The notes beneath the pieces were generated by a model. The model saw only the letters and a program-made list of their open reading frames with translations. It was not told where the DNA came from and searched no databases. Positions 5,288-56,069 of a DNA stretch of 64,000 bases are shown here, one piece after another. Both the position numbers and the translations under genes were made by a program. The stretch comes from an uncultured Bdellovibrionales bacterium (GTDB lineage Bacteria; Patescibacteriota; Minisyncoccia; Moranbacterales; UBA9337), in contig CAZSCV010000006.1 in assembly GCA_964605525.1 (NCBI GenBank), positions 434 to 64,433 on the forward strand. The letters run 5' to 3'. The first letter of the stretch is position 1. Every line of letters starts with the position of its first letter.

Positions 5288-5450
5288 TGTAAAAAAATTT
5301 CTAATTATTAATTTCTAATTTCTAAACAAATCCCAATTATCCAATGTTTAAATTTCAAAACATTGAAACATTTTAAAATTAAAAAATTGATTTAAAATTG
5401 GAAATTAGAAATTAGAAATTTATAAAAATTATGCCCAACATAATTTTTAT

Positions 5451-9401: not shown

Positions 9402-10862
9402 TTATTTTTTGGAATAACCCACAAAAAATCTTATTAGCCCCAAAATAATCCAGAAAAATATTCCCAACAAATTGGTTTCTAAATATGGTTGAAACAAAAA
9501 AACAATCAAATAATTTACTGCTAATGCAATTAATACAAAATCAATCCACTCTTTTTCTTTTTTTTCAACCAAACTTTTCAAAGTCAAAAACACAAACGCA
9601 ATCAACGGTAAAAACAAAATCAATCCACCTTGCAAAAGAATCGCCAAAAGTGAATTATGCACGTTGCGCACTTCAACCAAATCTTGATAATCCCCCAGCT
9701 CCAGTGAAAGCTTTTTCCCCAAACCAATTCCAACCAGCGGATTTTCTCTTATTTTCTCCCCCGCCTCCAACCACAACATTCCCCGCCAAAAAAAACTTTC
9801 ATCTTCCGAAAAACTGGAAAAAGAAGCTGTTCGCTTTCCCAAAACCTCAACGGAATAATCAATTCTCTGATCAATTTTTGAATTGGGAATAATCGCGGAA
9901 AGATAAAAAACAAAAACAATAACCGTCGCCGCACCAAAAATAATTTTCCCGGCATAATTTTTCAAAAATAGCCTTTTTTCTTTTGGCAAGAAAAAAATCG
10001 CAACAAAAGCAGAAAGAGCTAGGCCAATCCAAAGATGGCGCATCATCGATCCAATGATTCCAAAAATCCAAATCGGAAGCAACCAAAAATATTTGCGATA
10101 TTTTTTTGCCAAAGAAAAAACCAAAAATATTCCCAGCGTCAAAACCGCCATTGTCAAATAGAAAGCGTGCGGAAATGCCAACAAGCGAACCCCCTCGGTG
10201 GAAAGCGGAGTAAACTCCGACCACAAACCCTGCCCGGAAATAATTCCATAAATAATAAAAAATATAATACCGATTGCGCCTGCCAAAGCGAATTTCAAAA
10301 ATCTAACCAAATGTTCTTTTTTATTTAGCAAAATAATAACAGCAAAATACAATAGCGCGTAAAACCCATAATTCTTCCAAGCGGAAAAAGCCAAATCTTT
10401 GTCAGAATTCGGATCAAAAAAACTGGCTAGGAAATATATTGAAACCAAAAATATAAAAACAATCAAGAGCCAATCGACCGCTCTTATCCCCCTCTTCCTT
10501 TGGGAGAGGGTTGGGGTGAGGGTTCGTATGGAATGCGTATTTTTTAAATAATTAACCGCTATTCCCAAAATGACAGCCAAAAAAATCACGTCCAGCGGAT
10601 AAAATTTAATTTCACTACGCGACAGTACAATCGGCGCCAAAGTGAAAAATCTTTCAAAGACAAAAGTCAAAAACACAATCGCAAAAAGTCCACTTCGCGG
10701 ATGCGCCGCGACAATCGCAAAACTTGTCAGCATCAAAACCAAATACAAAGGCAAAGAAAATCCAAACGCAAAATTGGAAAAAATAAACAAAGAAACAGCC
10801 ACGATCACAAAAATTGCACTCACCGTTTCTCTATTCATTTTTTGCAACCAGACGTAAGACAT
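9402..10862 (-). CDS. O-antigen ligase / Wzy-like polytopic membrane protein
   Basis: 486 aa with about 10-12 TM helices and a periplasmic loop, a typical WaaL/Wzy architecture. The family call comes from topology only. Confidence 0.45.
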   Translation of the reverse strand: MSYVWLQKMNRETVSAIFVIVAVSLFIFSNFAFGFSLPLYLVLMLTSFAIVAAHPRSGLFAIVFLTFVFERFFTLAPIVLSRSEIKFYPLDVIFLAVILGIAVNYLKNTHSIRTLTPTLSQRKRGIRAVDWLLIVFIFLVSIYFLASFFDPNSDKDLAFSAWKNYGFYALLYFAVIILLNKKEHLVRFLKFALAGAIGIIFFIIYGIISGQGLWSEFTPLSTEGVRLLAFPHAFYLTMAVLTLGIFLVFSLAKKYRKYFWLLPIWIFGIIGSMMRHLWIGLALSAFVAIFFLPKEKRLFLKNYAGKIIFGAATVIVFVFYLSAIIPNSKIDQRIDYSVEVLGKRTASFSSFSEDESFFWRGMLWLEAGEKIRENPLVGIGLGKKLSLELGDYQDLVEVRNVHNSLLAILLQGGLILFLPLIAFVFLTLKSLVEKKEKEWIDFVLIALAVNYLIVFLFQPYLETNLLGIFFWIILGLIRFFVGYSKK

Positions 10863-10982
10863 AGGAATTAGGAATTAGAAATTTAATACACTGTTATTCT
10901 ACCAATAATTCAATAATAAAACCATCAAATACTCTCAAAATAACTCAATATAATAGTATATCACAAATCAGAAAAAAAATCA

Positions 10983-11012
10983 AGCCCTGATGTGAAATTT
11001 CACACCAGGGCT
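10983..11012 (-). terminator. Intrinsic terminator hairpin
   Basis: Near-perfect 15-bp palindrome agccctgatgtgaaa/tttcacaccagggct, followed on the minus strand by a T-run (A8 on plus at 10971..10978). Confidence 0.5.
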
Positions 11013-11040
11013 CGCCATCGGCAGCTGCCGAAGAAACATG

Positions 11041-11418
11041 TTATTTTTTGCGGACAATAATACATCCGCGAGAATCCGAGCATTCCGGTCTCAAACCCTC
11101 AAACTTGGAATACGGGTCGACAAGAAAATACCATGTCCCCTCCTTATCCTTCCAGGTATAGAGGAATCCCTCATCCGGATTTGCCGGGTCCAGCTTGAAT
11201 GAGTGGACAGGACCGAGGTCTGTGTTCCTCGTTCCCTTCCCGTCGCGGTGATACACCACGACATTCAAGAGCTCAGTCCCTGCCGGCATGGGCGGAATTG
11301 TCACCTCATCCCCCACGCAACTCGGCACGGCATTCACCCACTTGGGAGCCGCCTGCGCGATCCCTATCAGACAAAAAAACACTGCCACTGCCACGAAAAA
11401 ACCGATTGTCTTTTTCAT
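11041..11418 (-). CDS. Small secreted protein (GC-rich island)
   Basis: Likely start MKKTIGFFVAVAVFFCLIGIAQA (signal peptide). Local GC is about 50%, against about 35% in flanking DNA. Confidence 0.45.
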   Translation of the reverse strand: MKKTIGFFVAVAVFFCLIGIAQAAPKWVNAVPSCVGDEVTIPPMPAGTELLNVVVYHRDGKGTRNTDLGPVHSFKLDPANPDEGFLYTWKDKEGTWYFLVDPYSKFEGLRPECSDSRGCIIVRKK

Positions 11419-11594
11419 GATGCTTCCTCCTGTTGTTTGCCGACATATTATAGTCGGTTTTTTTGTTGAAAAAATTCTTTTCCCACAACCCAATGTTGCG
11501 GAAAAGTTCGTTCTTTCAAAATAAAAATAGAGATAAGTGGATCCTTCAATGAAGGACCCACCCATAAATAATTCTGCTCAATAATCAAACAGAA

Positions 11595-13154
11595 TCAATA
11601 TTGCAATAACTGATGATCGGCCGGTTTGACTTCTTCCGTCCTGATCACAGAATATTTTTTACGAACCTCGTGTTTCAATTCGAAACGAACGAAGGCTCCG
11701 TACGAATATCCACCAGCAGCACCTGCAACTGCCGATGCCAACGTATAATCAAAACTTGGACCAAACATCAACCACTCGCGATATCTGGCCTCCGCATTCA
11801 GATTCAGTCCCCAGCGATCTTCGTGAGGAGCAAATCCAATCTGCGCGCCAAGTCTCCCCGCCCAGTCCTCGGAAAAATACTTGTGAATTTTCGCTCCGAT
11901 AACAAATCCAGCGCGATCACTCACTTCATCTCCACTCCAACTGGAATTGATGGACCCGCTTACGTCAAACCATCCCTCCGCGTACAACACCGCCATAAGT
12001 TCAGGCGCAAATTGACGGAGATATTCGGCGTAATACCCCAAGAGAAAATGATCTTCGTCTTTGTGATAACCTGACGAAGAATTTTCCCCGTGCAAATGTT
12101 CCCAAAGCGTGCGGAACATAAACTGCACTTGATGGGGATATCCATTATCAGCAAGCCCGGTCCAAATAAAACCGATTTCTGGACCAATTCCCGCACTGTT
12201 CCACTCATAGCCGGCATCTGTTTCACCAAAGTCGCCCTTAGCAAAAACACCGACCTTCGGCACTAATGTGCCCCCAAAGATGTTGATGTTTCCATTCTCA
12301 CATCTTTGAAGAGTCAGGAGATACTGCGCGTACCACCAAAGGCCATGCACATCCCTCTCCTTATTCTGCCACGCGCCCATACCAGCATCTACTTCATGCT
12401 CGCACTGGACGCACTCCTTTTCTTCCACGACTTCTCTGAAAATCGGCGGGAGTTCCGGCGGAGTTTCCGGAATCACTTCCGGCACCACTGGAGCAGGCGG
12501 AATTTCCACTTTTTTAACCGGAACGGGAGGCTTCTCCCAAATGAGCCAGTTGGCGCACTCAGGTTTTGCATAAACGGATCCCACATAGCTTCCGTTTACT
12601 ATAATACCAAATCTTCCCACTTTCGCCTTTTCCGGCGAAAGCTCGGCTCGGTACCATTTCACCTTATTTTTTCCCGACACCATCTTAATGACGGCGCCGG
12701 AAGGCAAAATATCCATTCCCTCGCTGGCAAAATTCAGCCGGGCATCTTTTGGAATATCAAATCCCAAAAGTTTCAAACCTTCGACGAAAGTTCCCCTCCA
12801 AGGATCATCCCCGACCTCATCGTCGGAGTAAACTGCAGGATTTTCCTTAGTGCCAGTTACCACCTTTTTCGTGATAACAGAAAAAGTCTTTTTCGCCCTT
12901 TTGGTTATTTTGGGCGTAATCAACTTTTGTTGATTAGAAATTTTTTCAGGAATGATCACATTCTGTCCGACACGAATCGTGTACGGGGCAGAAATCTTAT
13001 TTTCCTCAGCGATGTTATGCCAGTCAACTCCCAGTTTAACGCCGATAGTTGAAAGACACTCACCCTTTGCGACCGTATGTGTCTGATCTGCCCAAGCGCT
13101 TGTTGCACACAAGGCAATCAGAAGCATTACCCATAAACCAACAATCCGCTTCAT
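11595..13154 (-). CDS. Secreted LysM-domain protein with Pro-rich linker and large C-terminal domain (GC-rich island)
   Basis: Signal peptide, then a LysM motif (HTVAKGECLSTIGVKLGVDWHNIAEENKI...IRVGQNVIIP), a PVPVKKVEIPPAPVVPEVIPETPPELPP linker, and a Trp/Gly/aromatic-rich C-terminal domain. Confidence 0.6.
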   Translation of the reverse strand: MKRIVGLWVMLLIALCATSAWADQTHTVAKGECLSTIGVKLGVDWHNIAEENKISAPYTIRVGQNVIIPEKISNQQKLITPKITKRAKKTFSVITKKVVTGTKENPAVYSDDEVGDDPWRGTFVEGLKLLGFDIPKDARLNFASEGMDILPSGAVIKMVSGKNKVKWYRAELSPEKAKVGRFGIIVNGSYVGSVYAKPECANWLIWEKPPVPVKKVEIPPAPVVPEVIPETPPELPPIFREVVEEKECVQCEHEVDAGMGAWQNKERDVHGLWWYAQYLLTLQRCENGNINIFGGTLVPKVGVFAKGDFGETDAGYEWNSAGIGPEIGFIWTGLADNGYPHQVQFMFRTLWEHLHGENSSSGYHKDEDHFLLGYYAEYLRQFAPELMAVLYAEGWFDVSGSINSSWSGDEVSDRAGFVIGAKIHKYFSEDWAGRLGAQIGFAPHEDRWGLNLNAEARYREWLMFGPSFDYTLASAVAGAAGGYSYGAFVRFELKHEVRKKYSVIRTEEVKPADHQLLQY

Positions 13155-13156
13155 AA

Positions 13157-14098
13157 CTACCTCCTTGGCGCGCTCAGCGCCTCTGTGAGTTGTTTCGCAT
13201 TGAATTGATTTCTTTTATAAACTTCATTTTGAGCAAGGATCAAAAGATATTCCATAGTGAACGCCATATTGCGACGATTCGGAATCTCAGAATTATAATC
13301 CCAACCGGTACTCGGGGCATTACCTGCTCCAATCAAATCCATCGCCACATTAATGGAATTGCAAATCGCAAATCCGGTCGGATCCGGGATAGGATTGATA
13401 CGGAACGTCCCCGTCCCAATAAGCTTCTGAAAATAGCTGTATTGCGGATTAATTCCGCGGATTTTCGCTACTTCATTCACTCCACAGGGAGACAAAAGAT
13501 ATCCTTCTGGATATTGAATTTGATTCCAAGTCTTAATGACATATTGAAACTTCTCAATCCGGGAAAGCGAACTCAGATTAAAAATGTTGCCATTTTCATC
13601 CGTGTTCACTTCTCTTATTTTTTCTTTCCGATACGCGGGATCAGCAAGAAACTTTCCCCGCTCTACGGGCAATTCTCTTCCGTATGGGCTGTAAATATAA
13701 TCCACAGCTGAAGAAAGAATCGCCGTCTGTCCGGAAGAAATTTGACCATCGATAACTTCCGTTCCGAAATACTGTCCCGAAGGATGCATTCCGGAAAAAA
13801 TCACTTGACCAAATCTCTCAGAATTATCATCCAAAATTGTCCACGTATTCCAACGCAGACGCCCTGGATAATATTCCCCAAACAGCTTAAGTGGAAAAAC
13901 TACCATAAAAGTAGAAATATCCCCTTTACTAATTGCCAGAGTCGGCTCCAACCCCAAAGACTGATGAGGCTGAACCAAAAGATTAACTTGATTTTCAGGC
14001 AAAGAAGCATTCTCCACCCGAAGCTCTTTTCCAGCGCACCCCGAAAGAAGCGCTACGACAAAAAATATAACAGTAAGACTTCTCAGAAAATTTTTCAT
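13157..14098 (-). CDS. Lipoprotein, hypothetical (GC-rich island)
   Basis: Likely start MKNFLRSLTVIFFVVALLSGCAG (lipobox). High-GC composition. Confidence 0.5.
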   Translation of the reverse strand: MKNFLRSLTVIFFVVALLSGCAGKELRVENASLPENQVNLLVQPHQSLGLEPTLAISKGDISTFMVVFPLKLFGEYYPGRLRWNTWTILDDNSERFGQVIFSGMHPSGQYFGTEVIDGQISSGQTAILSSAVDYIYSPYGRELPVERGKFLADPAYRKEKIREVNTDENGNIFNLSSLSRIEKFQYVIKTWNQIQYPEGYLLSPCGVNEVAKIRGINPQYSYFQKLIGTGTFRINPIPDPTGFAICNSINVAMDLIGAGNAPSTGWDYNSEIPNRRNMAFTMEYLLILAQNEVYKRNQFNAKQLTEALSAPRR

Positions 14099-14162
14099 CA
14101 CGCACCTCCCGATGCAGTTTTTTGATTTGGAATAATATTGGGAATTAACTTCCCATATATAT

Positions 14163-14202
14163 CTCATCATTACCATATTACGAAATATGGTAATGTTTAT
14201 AT
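14163..14202. promoter_or_regulatory. Palindromic operator-like site ATTACCATAT-TACGAA-ATATGGTAAT
   Basis: Perfect 10-bp inverted repeat about 70 nt upstream of the island lipoprotein gene. It shares the half-site ATTACCATAT with the repeats flanking the TrpR-like gene at 55.45 kb and 56.03 kb. Confidence 0.4.
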
Positions 14203-14411
14203 TGATTACCTATTAAATTGTCAAGGCAACTTATTTTATTACACATTTTCTCACGACCGTGAGTTAATGTGTGAAAAAAATATATCCAACGCTTGGGACT
14301 TCCAAGCGGAAGAGTGAGTTTTGGAAGAATACGTTTTGAAAAAACATACCGATCTCCAAACAACTCACCACTTCCACCAAGAATTATATTTATTGTTTCA
14401 TGTTTTATATC

Positions 14412-14457
14412 TGTCTTACGTCCTACATTTTACGTCTTATGTCTTACGTCTTACGTC
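14412..14457. repeat. Heptamer tandem repeat (GTCTTAC-like) x about 6
   Basis: ctgtcttacgtcctacattttacgtcttatgtcttacgtcttacgtct. Related to the (GTCTTAA)n array at 19788..19858. Confidence 0.6.
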
Positions 14458-14461
14458 TATC

Positions 14462-15157
14462 CTAAAGTTCATTCAAACTTTCCAAATATTCCTTTTCTTC
14501 CCGTGGCAATCCCATTGTTGCAAAATAATACGCCCACATCGCGCTTAAAATCACGCCAACCAAAAATCCTCCAACCACGACAGCAACTATTTCTTTGACG
14601 CTCGGATTCTTTTCCCAAATCGGTCCCGTCAAAATTTGCACATGCAAATCCGCCTTGTCTTGCAAAACACTTCCCCCATTTTCCATTACTTTTGCAATCG
14701 CGTTGGAAATTTGCACTGCCTCTTTTTGGCTATTGGCAAAAACTTCAAAACTCACGATTCCATATTGAAACTTTCCGCCTACTTTTACCATTTGCCCCCA
14801 CTCTTGCAATCTTTCCTTTCGATCAAAAGGAAGAAATTCAGAGTTCACCTCTCCGGTTTTGACAACTTGATCAATGAAAAGCTCGCTATACACAACTTCC
14901 CCCAAAACTCGGTTCACATATTCAGCTGATTTGAACACGGAATAAAAATCTTTTGAGTCCTCCCCGCCGGTCGGCACTACCAAATAATCAGTAGAAGCCT
15001 TGAAACTTTTTTGACTTACTACCAAAAAAAGAAACGACAAGGCCGCCACCAAAAATCCAAAAAGCAACAGCGTTCCGATTTTTTGCCTATTTTTAGCCTT
15101 TATTTCCCAATTAGACATATCATTATTCCATTTATTATTAATATGAGATTGTAGCAA
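14462..15157 (-). CDS. Wzz-like polysaccharide chain-length determinant / co-polymerase family protein
   Basis: One TM near the N-terminus (GTLLLFGFLVAALSFLFLVV), about 150 aa of periplasmic domain, and a C-terminal TM (IVAVVVGGFLVGVILSAMWAYYF). The start may be the internal Met at 15118. Confidence 0.45.
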   Translation of the reverse strand: MLQSHINNKWNNDMSNWEIKAKNRQKIGTLLLFGFLVAALSFLFLVVSQKSFKASTDYLVVPTGGEDSKDFYSVFKSAEYVNRVLGEVVYSELFIDQVVKTGEVNSEFLPFDRKERLQEWGQMVKVGGKFQYGIVSFEVFANSQKEAVQISNAIAKVMENGGSVLQDKADLHVQILTGPIWEKNPSVKEIVAVVVGGFLVGVILSAMWAYYFATMGLPREEKEYLESLNEL

Positions 15158-18489: not shown

Positions 18490-18598
18490 CGGTTTTCTGA
18501 AAAAATGTTTTTTTCGCAGCTGTCCGCGTCCCTCGAAAGGACCGGAGAAAAAAATACTTTTTCGGAAAACCATACGAAAATTACCTGGATACGCAAGT
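18490..18598. repeat. 108-nt intergenic repeat, copy B
   Basis: See copy A at 9239..9347. Confidence 0.6.
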
Positions 18599-18614: not shown

Positions 18615-19733
18615 TTAACATTTCAACCAATCCAAAGTTTCCTTCGCGCATTTTTCCCAAGAAAACTTTTCCGCCTGGATTGCCCCCTTTTCAATCATCG
18701 TTTTTCGCAAATCCCCATCAGAAAGGATTTTTTTTATTTTTACAAACAATTCTTCCGAATCAAGCGCATTAAAATACTCCGCTGCTTCCCCTCCTGCCTC
18801 ACGCAAGCTTGAATTATCCGCAGCAATCACAGGAATCTTTGATGCCATCGCTTCCAAAATGGGAATTCCAAATCCTTCATACAAAGAAGGAAAAACAAAA
18901 ATGCCGGCATTGCGAAACAGCACCGCCAAGCTGGAAAAATCAACTCTCCCGGTCAAAACAATATCCTCTCGGAAAGGGCTTTTCTCCACTTTCTCAATCA
19001 CACCCTCCCACATCCACGCCTTGCTTCCTGCCAAAACCAACTTAATACTGCTATTCGTTTTATTTTTATATTTTTCAAATGCGCAAATCAAAGTCTCCAA
19101 ATTCTTACGAGGCTGAATAGCACCGACATACAATAAATAATCCTTGGATTGTAAATTGTGAGTTTTCAATATTTCCTTTTTTTTATTTTCAGAAATTTCG
19201 TTTTGAAATAATTTTCCGTCAAAACCATGATGAACCACTTTTATTTTTTTCTCATCAAAATGAGGATAAAATTTCAAAATATCCCTTTTCGTTGAATGAG
19301 AAATCGCAATTAATTTATCAGCATTTCCAACTGCCATATCCGTCAAAAAATTAATCTGCCTCAAATCCTTTTTCGGGAAACTTTCCGGAAAAATCTTGAA
19401 AGCCAAATCATGAATTGTTACTACCGTTTTCAGTCCAGATTTTCGAACCAAGGGAATATTATGCATCGGCATCCACAAAACATCCGGATTATCCCGCCAA
19501 AGAGATCCAGCGAATCCGGTTTGTGTCCAAAGACAAGGAGAGAAAACTTTTTTTATTTTGTAATTGGAAAAATTTTCCGGAACCAATTCCGGATTAAACT
19601 CCCGACGATGATAAATATCAAAATCATCGCCAAACCCCAATTTCCCAAAATATTTAAGCAAATTCAAAAGATAAACCCTTGTCCCGTCTATCCGTTTATT
19701 ATCCAAATCCGCCGCCTGAATCGCAATTTTCAT
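18615..19733 (-). CDS. Glycosyltransferase family 4
   Basis: GT4 motifs (GSKAWMWEG...EGFGIPILEAMASKIPVIAADNSSLREAGGEAA). Probable start MKIAIQAADL. Confidence 0.75.
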   Translation of the reverse strand: MKIAIQAADLDNKRIDGTRVYLLNLLKYFGKLGFGDDFDIYHRREFNPELVPENFSNYKIKKVFSPCLWTQTGFAGSLWRDNPDVLWMPMHNIPLVRKSGLKTVVTIHDLAFKIFPESFPKKDLRQINFLTDMAVGNADKLIAISHSTKRDILKFYPHFDEKKIKVVHHGFDGKLFQNEISENKKKEILKTHNLQSKDYLLYVGAIQPRKNLETLICAFEKYKNKTNSSIKLVLAGSKAWMWEGVIEKVEKSPFREDIVLTGRVDFSSLAVLFRNAGIFVFPSLYEGFGIPILEAMASKIPVIAADNSSLREAGGEAAEYFNALDSEELFVKIKKILSDGDLRKTMIEKGAIQAEKFSWEKCAKETLDWLKC

Positions 19734-19787
19734 ATTACTAATTACTAATATATACAAATTTACGAATGATACTTATACCCTAAATTT

Positions 19788-19858
19788 AAGTCTTAAGTCT
19801 TAAGTCTTAAGTCTTAAGTCTTAAGTCTTAAGTCTTACGTCTGTCTTACAACCCCAGT
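19788..19858. repeat. Heptamer tandem array (GTCTTAA)7 plus GTCTTAC variants
   Basis: Seven perfect tandem GTCTTAA units followed by GTCTTAC units, immediately 5' of the GT4 gene start on the minus strand. Confidence 0.8.
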
Positions 19859-20052
19859 CCGGAATATGCCGAGCTCATCGTGCTCAAAAACCACGGAATA
19901 ATCGCAATCAAACCAATAAGCGGAAGCAAAACCGCCCCGATGGAAATTATCATCGTCCAAAGAAAATACTTGCGCGTTTTTTCCACAGAAACAAAAATCT
20001 GTTCCAATTTTTCATCTTGCTGTTTGAATTTTTCCAAAATATCTTGTTCCAT
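19846..20052 (-). CDS. Small hypothetical membrane protein
   Basis: 68 aa with a charged N-terminus and one TM helix. Weak. Confidence 0.25.
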   Translation of the reverse strand: MEQDILEKFKQQDEKLEQIFVSVEKTRKYFLWTMIISIGAVLLPLIGLIAIIPWFLSTMSSAYSGLGL

Positions 20053-20115
20053 ATTTTTGTTTTGAATAAATTATTTATATCTATTTTACAAACTTCAATT
20101 TTCCGAAAAATAAAA

Positions 20116-20260
20116 TCATTCTGGCAAGGACAAAATAATAAAATATTTTTCTTACACTGTCTTTGTGCAGTCAGGATAAATTATTTTTGCGCAAACCAAC
20201 CGAGCGTTTAAAATATATATCTACTAAATCCAAAAGGGACACTTGGAAGAAAAATATTTT
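20116..20260. mobile_element. MITE-like element (145 bp) with 27-bp terminal inverted repeats
   Basis: ggacaaaataataaaatatttttcttac at 20116..20142 matches the reverse complement of 20234..20260 (ggacaaaacaataaaatatttttcttcc). Internal blocks (tgtctttgtgc, caaaccaaccga, ccaaaagggaca.ttgga) are shared with the element at 53157..53309. Confidence 0.45.
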
Positions 20261-21026
20261 ATTGTTTTGTCCGGTTTAATTTTTCCGATCCTACATTCAG
20301 GTTCAGTTTCTGCAAAAATTCCGCCAATTCTTCGCCAACAAGCTCCCTCTTTTCTCCTGCATGCAAAGCGCCCAATTTAATACTCATTACTCTCGTCCTT
20401 TTCAAATCAAGCACCCGATAATCCAGCGCACTGCACATTCTCCTGATCTGATGGCGTTTTCCTTCAGAAAGAACAATACTAAAAGTATAATCATCTATTT
20501 TCCGAGCCTTGCACGGTTTGGTAATTTCTCCGCCCTCCAAATCCATTCCCCCGCAAACAATACGGAAAAACCGGTCCTTCAGTTTTTTGTCCACACGCAC
20601 TCGATATTCTTTTTCGTGGTCATATTTCGGATCAAGAAGTTTTCCTGTAATCCTTCCGTCATTAGTTGCGACAATAAGCCCGTGCGAATCCTTGTCGAGT
20701 CGCCCAACCGTAAAAACTCCCTCGGGAAAATCCGCAATATCTGCCACGCTTTTTTCTCCTTCAGCAGGACTCACTGTTACAATCCCTATGGGCTTGTTAA
20801 AGACAAAATATTGCAATTTCTTGAAATTTTTAACTTTCTTACTCACATCCACCTGGTCGCCTTCGGAAACCTTGTCCCCCACTTTGGCGTTTCTGCCGTT
20901 GATTTTTACCAACGAACGCGCCACCAAGACGTCTGCCTCCCGCCGGGAACAAATTCCTTTTTGCGCCAAATACTTGTTAATCCTCATCGGATACTCGTTT
21001 TTTTCTGCATTTTTAATTTCATTCAT
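20259..21026 (-). CDS. rluB: rRNA pseudouridine synthase (RsuA/RluB family) with S4 domain
   Basis: S4 domain (RINKYLAQKGICSRREADVLV) and the catalytic motif VGRLDKDSHGLIVATNDG. Confidence 0.85.
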   Translation of the reverse strand: MNEIKNAEKNEYPMRINKYLAQKGICSRREADVLVARSLVKINGRNAKVGDKVSEGDQVDVSKKVKNFKKLQYFVFNKPIGIVTVSPAEGEKSVADIADFPEGVFTVGRLDKDSHGLIVATNDGRITGKLLDPKYDHEKEYRVRVDKKLKDRFFRIVCGGMDLEGGEITKPCKARKIDDYTFSIVLSEGKRHQIRRMCSALDYRVLDLKRTRVMSIKLGALHAGEKRELVGEELAEFLQKLNLNVGSEKLNRTKQ

Positions 21027-21174: not shown

Positions 21175-21429
21175 ATATTCAATTTTCAACACTTAATAAA
21201 TACTATACCAAACTTTTTCAAAAATCAAGAAAAAAGACAAATAAAAAATGCTACGGGATTTTCCAATAGCATTTGCTCGCTTGCGCGATAAGAAGACGAA
21301 TTGCCTTCTTTATGAAAAAGAACAAATTCTTTGCCTATATTTTCAGGATTTGTTTTTCGAGAGAAAAACAGGAATAAGATTCATTTGAACCTATTTCTTT
21401 CCTTTTTTCCTTTTTGAAAAAATAGACAA

Positions 21430-25908: not shown

Positions 25909-25999
25909 ACAGATAATTTACAATTTTCAATTTTCAATTTTCATTGAATTTTTAATTGATCAATTTTTCAATTTTAAAACTCAATAAATAATTAATACT

Positions 26000-55445: not shown

Positions 55446-55488
55446 TCATATTACCATATTTTGAAATGTTGAAATATTGTAATATTTC
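55446..55488. promoter_or_regulatory. About 43-nt direct repeat with operator-like palindrome (copy 1, upstream of maf)
   Basis: tatcatattaccatattttgaaatgttgaaatattgtaatatttc is identical to 56026..56069 and contains ATTACCATAT-N13-ATATTGTAAT plus GAAATATTGTAATATTTC. Confidence 0.55.
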
Positions 55489-56025: not shown

Positions 56026-56069
56026 CATTATTACCATATTTTGAAATGTTGAAATATTGTAATATTTCT
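56026..56069. promoter_or_regulatory. About 43-nt direct repeat with operator-like palindrome (copy 2, upstream of the TrpR-like gene)
   Basis: Identical to 55446..55488. Confidence 0.55.

Follow-up and report, generated by a model that had tools for sequence, protein, structure and literature searches.

Intergenic heptanucleotide repeats in a Moranbacteria genome: two related arrays, one upstream of a GT4 glycosyltransferase gene, that differ by whole units between lineages

The window, that is, the entire 64,000-nucleotide stretch of DNA analysed here, contains two arrays of a shared seven-base unit family that are intergenic heptanucleotide simple-sequence repeats, a known class found here in a lineage of the CPR: array 1, which precedes a GT4-family glycosyltransferase gene, and array 2, located 5.3 kb away. 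With a probability of about 0.6, array 1 is a neutral or weakly modulatory by-product of heptamer-biased slippage, with no dedicated on/off switch, given the whole-unit indels, the excess of period-7 arrays, the diversity of their units, the lack of a significant excess at GT4 genes and the lack of a promoter spanning the array. The strongest alternative, an unlikely one, is a true contingency locus, where frequent slippage of array 1 within populations would change GT4 expression and result in variable surface glycosylation, by way of either the 5'-leader structure or the length of the upstream promoter DNA, as for the (ATCTTTC)n repeats of hmw1A and hmw2A or the TTTTGAT heptads of ctxAB. We also consider retention of the repeats for a nucleic acid-binding protein and an assembly artefact.

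Known heptameric repeats

Mrazek et al. (2007), as cited in PMC4679880 and PMC4692102, found that in most genomes no long simple repeats are more abundant than heptanucleotide repeats, for which they proposed polymerase slippage with a preference for 7 nt. According to PMC4679880, repeats of 5-11 nt were most plentiful in that survey in genomes of Burkholderia, cyanobacteria, actinobacteria and Xanthomonas. The GGGAATC repeats of Xanthomonas and the GGGGAYT repeats of Nostoc are found between aligned ORFs, at most 50 bp from stop codons or overlapping them, are rare between divergent ORFs, sometimes form inverted pairs, and vary in length among close relatives (PMC4692102). In Beggiatoaceae, Cyanobacteria and Bacteroidetes, TAACTGA repeats have been amplified in a genome-specific manner, and protein binding has been proposed for them (PMC4679880).

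The assignment of arrays 1 and 2 to this class follows from the match of their anatomy to that of the published heptameric repeats, namely, co-oriented ORFs, stop codons, rarity between divergent ORFs, and variable length. As with the cyanobacterial STRR and the GGGAATC, GGGGAYT and TAACTGA repeats, a 7-nt unit is tandemly repeated in intergenic DNA, mostly between co-oriented ORFs and close to or overlapping stop codons, several loci share a unit family, decayed units stand beside perfect runs, closely related genomes differ in the length and sequence of the arrays, and period 7 is in genome-wide excess (here, in the 64 kb and in related loci). The differences are the unit, KTAAGAC, which is A+T-rich and lacks G-quadruplex potential, and the host, a member of the small-genome Parcubacteria/Moranbacteria. 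The 2007 survey reportedly tied such repeats to large-genome free-living bacteria. In our literature search for heptamer or microsatellite repeats or contingency loci in CPR or Parcubacteria, each of the papers listed dealt with one side of the pairing only.

Sequence and placement of the arrays

All genes around both arrays are encoded on the minus strand, so the arrays are best read as KTAAGAC (Table 1). On this strand, array 1 is GTAAGAC AGAC GTAAGAC (TTAAGAC)6 TTAAATT, and on the plus strand, positions 19790-19849 read (GTCTTAA)6 GTCTTAC GTCT GTCTTAC; in the phase TTAAGTC, there are 7.4 perfect copies. TRF places the array at 19786-19842 (period 7, 8.1 copies, 98% matches) with a score of 107, the highest in the window, and its length is 50-64 bp. 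With at most one mismatch, GTCTTAMGTCTTAM has nine matches, all inside arrays 1 and 2, compared with 0.05 expected (100 dinucleotide shuffles). The perfect tract of array 1 (6 TTAAGAC units, or 7.4 perfect periods) has a length sufficient for hypermutability, and six perfect units in a row suffice for a mutational hot spot, which speaks against the by-product reading and is in line with a contingency locus.

Array 1 is non-coding and lies between co-oriented ORFs, its first unit holding the TAA stop codon of a 68-aa ORF. The distance from its end to the GT4 start codon is about 50-53 nt (50 nt to the ATG when the decayed TTAAATT is counted), and the last perfect unit stops 57 nt before the ATG. 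The first-pass annotation had given the repeat as 19788-19858, of which the 7-base tandem repeat is confirmed and the last nine bases (19850-19858) are coding sequence of the small ORF; its location of the repeat upstream of a GT4 gene was correct, the gene being on the minus strand with clear Pfam domains (Glycos_transf_1, 5e-29; Glyco_transf_4, 2e-10). The homologues of the GT4 protein come mostly from Moranbacteria and Parcubacteria.

Array 2, a related (GTCTTAC)n array that had been noted near 14412..14457, is present, shifted by one position, as (GTCTTAC)6.6 with 79% matches by TRF; it is non-coding and flanked by minus-strand ORFs. Arrays 1 and 2 share the unit family and the orientation, and each starts at a stop codon, which does not fit a mere by-product easily.

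Table 1. Coordinates of the arrays, neighbouring genes and promoter-like elements in the window
Feature	Position	Strand	Basis and remarks
Heptamer array 1	19783..19849	-	Sequence, TRF, comparison with L209 (28-nt = 4x7 gap, other unit variants)
68-aa ORF, predicted membrane (hydrophobic) segment, no Pfam family	19846..20052	-	Upstream of GT4 also in L209 and L134
GT4-family glycosyltransferase gene, 372 aa, ATG at 19733	18615..19733	-	Pfam; downstream of array 1
Weak promoter-like elements, 3' edge of array 1	19766..19796	-	TTAAGA-19-TATCAT; TATAAG at 19772-19777, where L209 has a perfect TATAAT
Promoter-like TTGAAG-17-AATAAT upstream of the 68-aa ORF	20070..20098	-	Kept in L209
Heptamer array (GAAAATT)n	25915..25975	-	91-nt rubrerythrin-like/ZIP spacer; TRF
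Intergenic spacer with (AATTTCT)4.3, (AAATTAG)3.7 and an 8-mer array	5296..5420		TRF
Heptamer array (TAGGAAT)3.1, directly upstream of a 486-aa membrane protein ORF	10862..10883		TRF
Heptamer array 2, decayed (GTAAGAC)6.6	14413..14458	-	TRF; starts 4 nt past the TAG stop codon of the 231-aa ORF
231-aa ORF, N- and C-terminal hydrophobic segments, stop codon just before array 2	14462..15157	-	ORF, Pfam search

Copy number within the clone and in the nearest relative

Three further assemblies containing the locus were identified by exact-protein look-up (GCA_007376775.1, ERZ27284377 and ERZ27284374). Over 9 kb the contigs match at 100%, except that one of them has two unrelated deletions, and the four assemblies therefore represent one clone and display only its stable majority allele. 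Both arrays are identical in the consensus sequences of the four assemblies, from at least three samples, with no length polymorphism among them at either array; such constancy argues against a contingency locus. The two deletions, in GCA_007376775.1, are either population variants or assembly errors: 23 nt are missing inside the 231-aa ORF (~14904-14932), causing a frameshift, so that 69-aa and 143-aa ORFs are called, and 25 nt of intergenic DNA are missing as well (window ~21249-21273).

The nearest relative, a contig of a Candidatus Moranbacteria MAG (hereafter L209), was found via a 90%-identity protein cluster (member P0121); a protein search for closer strains found no GT4 homologue between 78% and 100% identity. 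L209 is syntenic with the window over 15 kb, with a GT4 protein (P0121) 95% identical and DNA identity of about 86-94%. Its version of array 1 is GTAAGAC AGAC GTAAGAC GTAAGAC ATAAGAC GCAAGAC, which is 28 nt shorter and lacks the TTAAGAC run, and its version of array 2 is 28 nt, or exactly four units, longer, so that the differences at the two arrays run in opposite directions (4.6 and 10.6 copies, respectively, in L209 by TRF). Only three indels exceed 3 nt within a collinear block of 6.1 kb with 92% identical DNA, and two of them are those at arrays 1 and 2. The third is a 48-nt G+C-rich segment (~18510-18557) between the GT4 stop codon and a convergent 132-aa gene that is absent in L209.

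Because L209 differs by exactly 28 nt (four units) at each array, whole-unit slippage on an evolutionary time scale is evident at both, as judged from the alignment. This bears out the earlier proposal that the arrays are substrates of slipped-strand mispairing, and the length variation among strains that it entailed was found in the comparison with L209. By the same comparison, both arrays predate the split from the L209 lineage, and the perfect TTAAGAC run is a recent expansion of a variant unit in the window lineage. Both arrays have kept their position across ~10% DNA divergence, which could reflect constraint and to that extent speaks against a mere by-product; array 2 also contains 44 nt without a substitution, with a chance probability of about 0.1. 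The whole-unit difference at array 1 would be expected of a contingency locus, too.

The (GAAAATT)n array fills the 91-nt spacer between the rubrerythrin and ZIP genes in the window, and in L209 the array is absent and the spacer is 3 nt long. A ~195-nt segment (~20102-20296) with GAAAnTGAA-like direct repeats on either side, present in the window and absent in L209, is a possible small insertion element; it replaces the C-terminal end of a pseudouridine synthase gene (255 aa vs 245 aa). The loci with GT4 identities of 53-78% mostly have other genes upstream and no homologous array. In another species (locus L134), the spacer between the small ORF and the GT4 gene holds a different simple repeat, of the GTAA/ATAA type, an observation that favours a contingency locus.

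Heptamer arrays in the window and in related genomes

Of all repeat periods, 7 shows the strongest enrichment in the window, with 15 arrays compared to 2.67 in shuffled sequences (64 kb of genome). We selected 72 non-redundant metagenome loci of related CPR (463 kb, Parcubacteria/Moranbacteria) by their GT4 protein, irrespective of repeats; they contain 39 arrays of period 7, where 0.3 would be expected, a ~130-fold excess, and period 14 is in excess as well. Intergenic DNA, which makes up 9.7% of the bases, accommodates 44% of the arrays with periods 7, 14 and 21, a concentration of about sevenfold, and the larger arrays of the window occupy short spacers between co-oriented genes. The heptamer units are diverse, and their sequences differ completely between related genomes and between spacers.

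True contingency loci adjoin surface-related genes, as array 1 does, and by this analogy its position might count against the by-product reading. A strict count, however, gives heptamer arrays upstream of 2/15 GT4 orthologues vs 6/96 other spacers (p=0.29), and a specific association of such arrays with GT4 genes was rejected. Since heptamer arrays occur throughout the lineage and are not significantly enriched at GT4 genes, the proximity of array 1 to a surface-glycan gene is no evidence of a contingency locus.

By eye, several CPR orthologues of the GT4 gene are directly preceded by heptamer arrays of unrelated units (L146, 3890-4000; L157, 2283-2366; L179; L160; and L135 and L137, upstream of 4001). 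Some of these are inverted pairs, (TTACGAA)n ... (TTCGTAA)n, that could form hairpins, and others are of the (TATGCTA)n type. In the window itself, two identical intergenic copies of CCATATTTTGAAATGTTG are located 580 nt apart (55454-55486 and 56034-56066), each with a (TTGAAATA)3.2 array.

Promoter geometry, transcription and RNA folding of array 1

The first-pass annotation held that steps of 7 nt alter promoter spacing and so give phase-variable expression. This model was rejected: no -35/-10 pair spans array 1, which at 50-64 bp is too long for a spacer. The array is periodic and lies upstream of the -10 element, so that, however many whole units are gained or lost, an identical -35-like hexamer stands at an unchanged distance, a point that also weighs against a contingency locus. 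As for promoter elements overlapping the array, the window and L209 differ. A consensus scan (at least 9/12 matches, 16-18 nt spacer) found no -35/-10 pair overlapping array 1 in the window, whereas in L209 it detected AAGACA-18-TATAAT (10/12), with the -35 inside array 1 and the -10 element 36 nt before the ATG. The degraded homologue of this promoter in the window, AAGACT-18-TATAAG, scores 8/12 and fails at the conserved last T; under a relaxed hand scan, the best candidate in the window is TTAAGA-19-TATCAT, its TTAAGA being the last unit of array 1. Thus, hexamers touching the array do exist, and the location of array 1 directly upstream of, and overlapping, a -35-like element of the GT4 gene favours a contingency locus. 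Because the -35 of the L209 promoter is inside the array, array 1 can supply a -35 element, and changes in its units can affect transcription, which runs against the by-product reading; it is the unit sequence that matters for the -35, not the number of units.

The promoter-like TTGAAG-17-AATAAT is a likely source of a bicistronic small-ORF/GT4 transcript carrying array 1. As this site is conserved and no terminator-like site was found in the spacer between the small ORF and the GT4 gene, in the window or in L209, array 1 is probably also transcribed. In the predicted fold of the array 1 RNA, CUUAAG palindromes self-pair with A-A mismatches (MFE -26.2 kcal/mol), and the predicted stability of the hairpin rises by ~3.3 kcal/mol per unit; if the array is transcribed, such scaling with copy number would suit a contingency locus. 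However, the fold is no more stable than those of shuffled sequences (z = -1.19), so a stable RNA structure was rejected, and this, too, weakens the case for a contingency locus. Searches with the Rfam 15 covariance models gave no match at or near the arrays at the gathering score or at E<=1.

In the mechanism that we favour, both arrays gain and lose whole 7-nt units by replication slippage, as seen in the comparison with L209. Array 1 occupies a spacer that extends from the stop codon of the small membrane-protein gene to the -35 region of a weak GT4 promoter and is probably also carried within the bicistronic mRNA; changes in copy number leave the -35/-10 spacing unaltered, and any effect on GT4 would be quantitative. 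Possible routes for such an effect are the length of the A+T-rich DNA upstream of the GT4 promoter and the imperfect CUUAAG-based RNA or DNA hairpin with its predicted gain in stability per unit.

Comparison with regulatory repeats

A contingency role for heptamer repeats has been established experimentally elsewhere. The (ATCTTTC)n repeats of hmw1A and hmw2A of Haemophilus influenzae comprise at least 11 units in a mapped 5'-UTR, an RNase III substrate arises by the pairing of 10 repeats with a G-rich arm, and both within-population variation and an inverse relation between length and expression have been demonstrated (PMC12721329). Array 1 resembles the hmw repeat in being a heptanucleotide repeat upstream of a surface-related gene, with whole-unit changes and hairpin potential, its transcription as part of the leader being inferred, but its copy number is constant in the clone and no complementary arm is present in the small-ORF/GT4 spacer, a further point against a contingency locus.

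In the ctxAB promoter of Vibrio cholerae, the copy number of TTTTGAT heptads differs among strains and the heptads recruit transcriptional regulators (preprint 10.1101/2021.05.14.444153). Array 1 likewise consists of tandem heptamers in front of a promoter, and its copy number varies between lineages. The ctx heptads abut or overlap the -35 element, and their regulators are ToxT and H-NS. The poly-G tract of porA of Neisseria lies within the promoter (PMC3639595). Like these promoter repeats of Neisseria and Haemophilus, array 1 is a simple repeat in the promoter region of a surface-structure gene, but unlike them, it is upstream of the -10 and too long for a spacer. In Haemophilus, hifA/B have a (TA)n promoter repeat, and the porA and hif tracts are located between the -35 and the -10, so that their length sets the spacing.

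Array 2 weighs against a contingency locus as well: it has the same unit family as array 1 and no plausible target gene. It is upstream of no promoter, being located 3' of a stop codon, and 286 nt separate it from the next gene, which is preceded by hairpins and has a TTGACA-17-TATAAA promoter of its own.

KTAAGAC repeats as possible protein-binding sites

Under a different explanation, which we consider very unlikely, sense-strand KTAAGAC repeats would be kept for a DNA- or RNA-binding protein, for example, a multimeric RNA binder on 3'-UTR or intercistronic RNA. The occurrence of one unit in one orientation at two loci, each starting at a stop codon, the retention of both arrays in L209, including the unsubstituted 44 nt of array 2, and the analogous proposals for the TAACTGA repeats (PMC4679880) are all compatible with such a role. 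On the other side, isolated KTAAGAC sites are not enriched, with 8 outside the arrays compared to 9.1 expected for the whole window, so that a regulon of dispersed sites was rejected; units decay freely, as in array 2, and unit sequences are wholly different between related genomes and between spacers. No candidate protein binding KTAAGAC repeats was found.

Two further points in favour of protein binding come from other phyla. A scan of representative genomes for (GTCTTAM)3 yielded at least 120 stretches in many phyla. In the 120 loci among the matches listed, 60 of the arrays lie between co-oriented, 30 between convergent and 14 between divergent genes, a placement like that of the published heptameric repeats and one that supports the by-product reading; the arrays in the matches listed are located near the 3' ends of genes, and the KTAAGAC strand is sense in 40 and antisense in 20 (p=0.013; loci not independent). 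This count was made with the arrays masked, given that ORFs can cross the stop-free GTCTTAC strand. The bias is modest and confounded with replication-strand composition, and it was set aside as a sign of function. Also among the matches listed, further GTCT-type arrays are present in 13/79 genomes with GTCTTAM arrays vs about 4 expected. A count of at least 120 is expected from the general heptamer phenomenon (about 1,200 heptamer classes) and hence is not evidence for GTCTTAM in particular; as a special cross-phylum motif it was rejected, the matching genomes being rich in heptamer arrays of many unrelated units.

Very long GTCTTAM arrays were observed in unrelated phyla (L029, L081, L105, L036 and L113). 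The first of these, in Latescibacterota OZ242010.1, comprises 18 perfect copies in a degenerate array of several hundred nucleotides, beside (CTGACAA)n. At three loci (L063, L017 and L115), an array is followed by its inverted copy.

That the repeat was made or collapsed by an assembler is hardly credible: short-read assemblers can miscount repeats, with nothing specific pointing to it here, but array 1, at about 64 bp, falls short of the length of the final k-mer (k119, according to the contig names), four assemblies gave an identical sequence, and an independent MAG, L209, contains a homologous array at the same place.

Implications

The curious preference for seven-base repeats that is known from many bacteria is also strong in these streamlined genomes, which extends the puzzle of why units of 7 are preferred to a distant lineage. 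Within intergenic DNA that is otherwise conserved, heptamer repeats are responsible for the greatest differences in length between close relatives, which is useful for strain typing and for judging assemblies.

A bolder combination, in which heptamer repeats are pervasive and so far undescribed in the intergenic DNA of Parcubacteria/Moranbacteria and (TTAAGAC)6 is, in addition, a working GT4 contingency locus that tunes surface glycosylation by whole-unit slippage, is decidedly unlikely. If true, (TTAAGAC)6 supplying the -35 region and leader of GT4 would be the first case of repeat-driven phase variation in the CPR radiation. If array 1 tuned a surface glycosyltransferase, ultra-small, host-dependent CPR bacteria would share a bet-hedging trick of host-adapted pathogens.

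Surroundings of array 2

The 231-aa ORF that ends just before array 2 had been labelled Wzz-like, a label that Pfam does not support: the ORF has no Wzz match there, and its sole match is a sub-threshold one to ABC2_membrane_3. The island reported beside array 2 does have a higher G+C content (0.42-0.45 at 10001-14000, compared with 0.36-0.39 in the flanks). This region starts right past array 2, and its genes, for a LysM protein and lipoproteins, show little conservation in L209, as would those of a variable or acquired segment.

Downstream of array 2, a 290-nt non-coding stretch (14100-14461, minus strand) is strongly structured as RNA (z = -4.57), contains the terminator-like hairpins and the TTGACA-17-TATAAA promoter, and is ~95% identical to L209. 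The lipoprotein gene that follows (13157-14098, minus strand) retains the signal peptide in the comparison with L209 (12225-13499 there for stretch and gene together), and the mature part is only 29% identical; a body this divergent behind a conserved 5' region points to a variable surface lipoprotein. Just upstream of this gene, at 14173-14190, there is an 18-bp palindrome, CCATATTACGAAATATGG, which may be an operator; a nearly identical palindrome is found upstream of the GT4 orthologue in another species (L134, 3958-3975).
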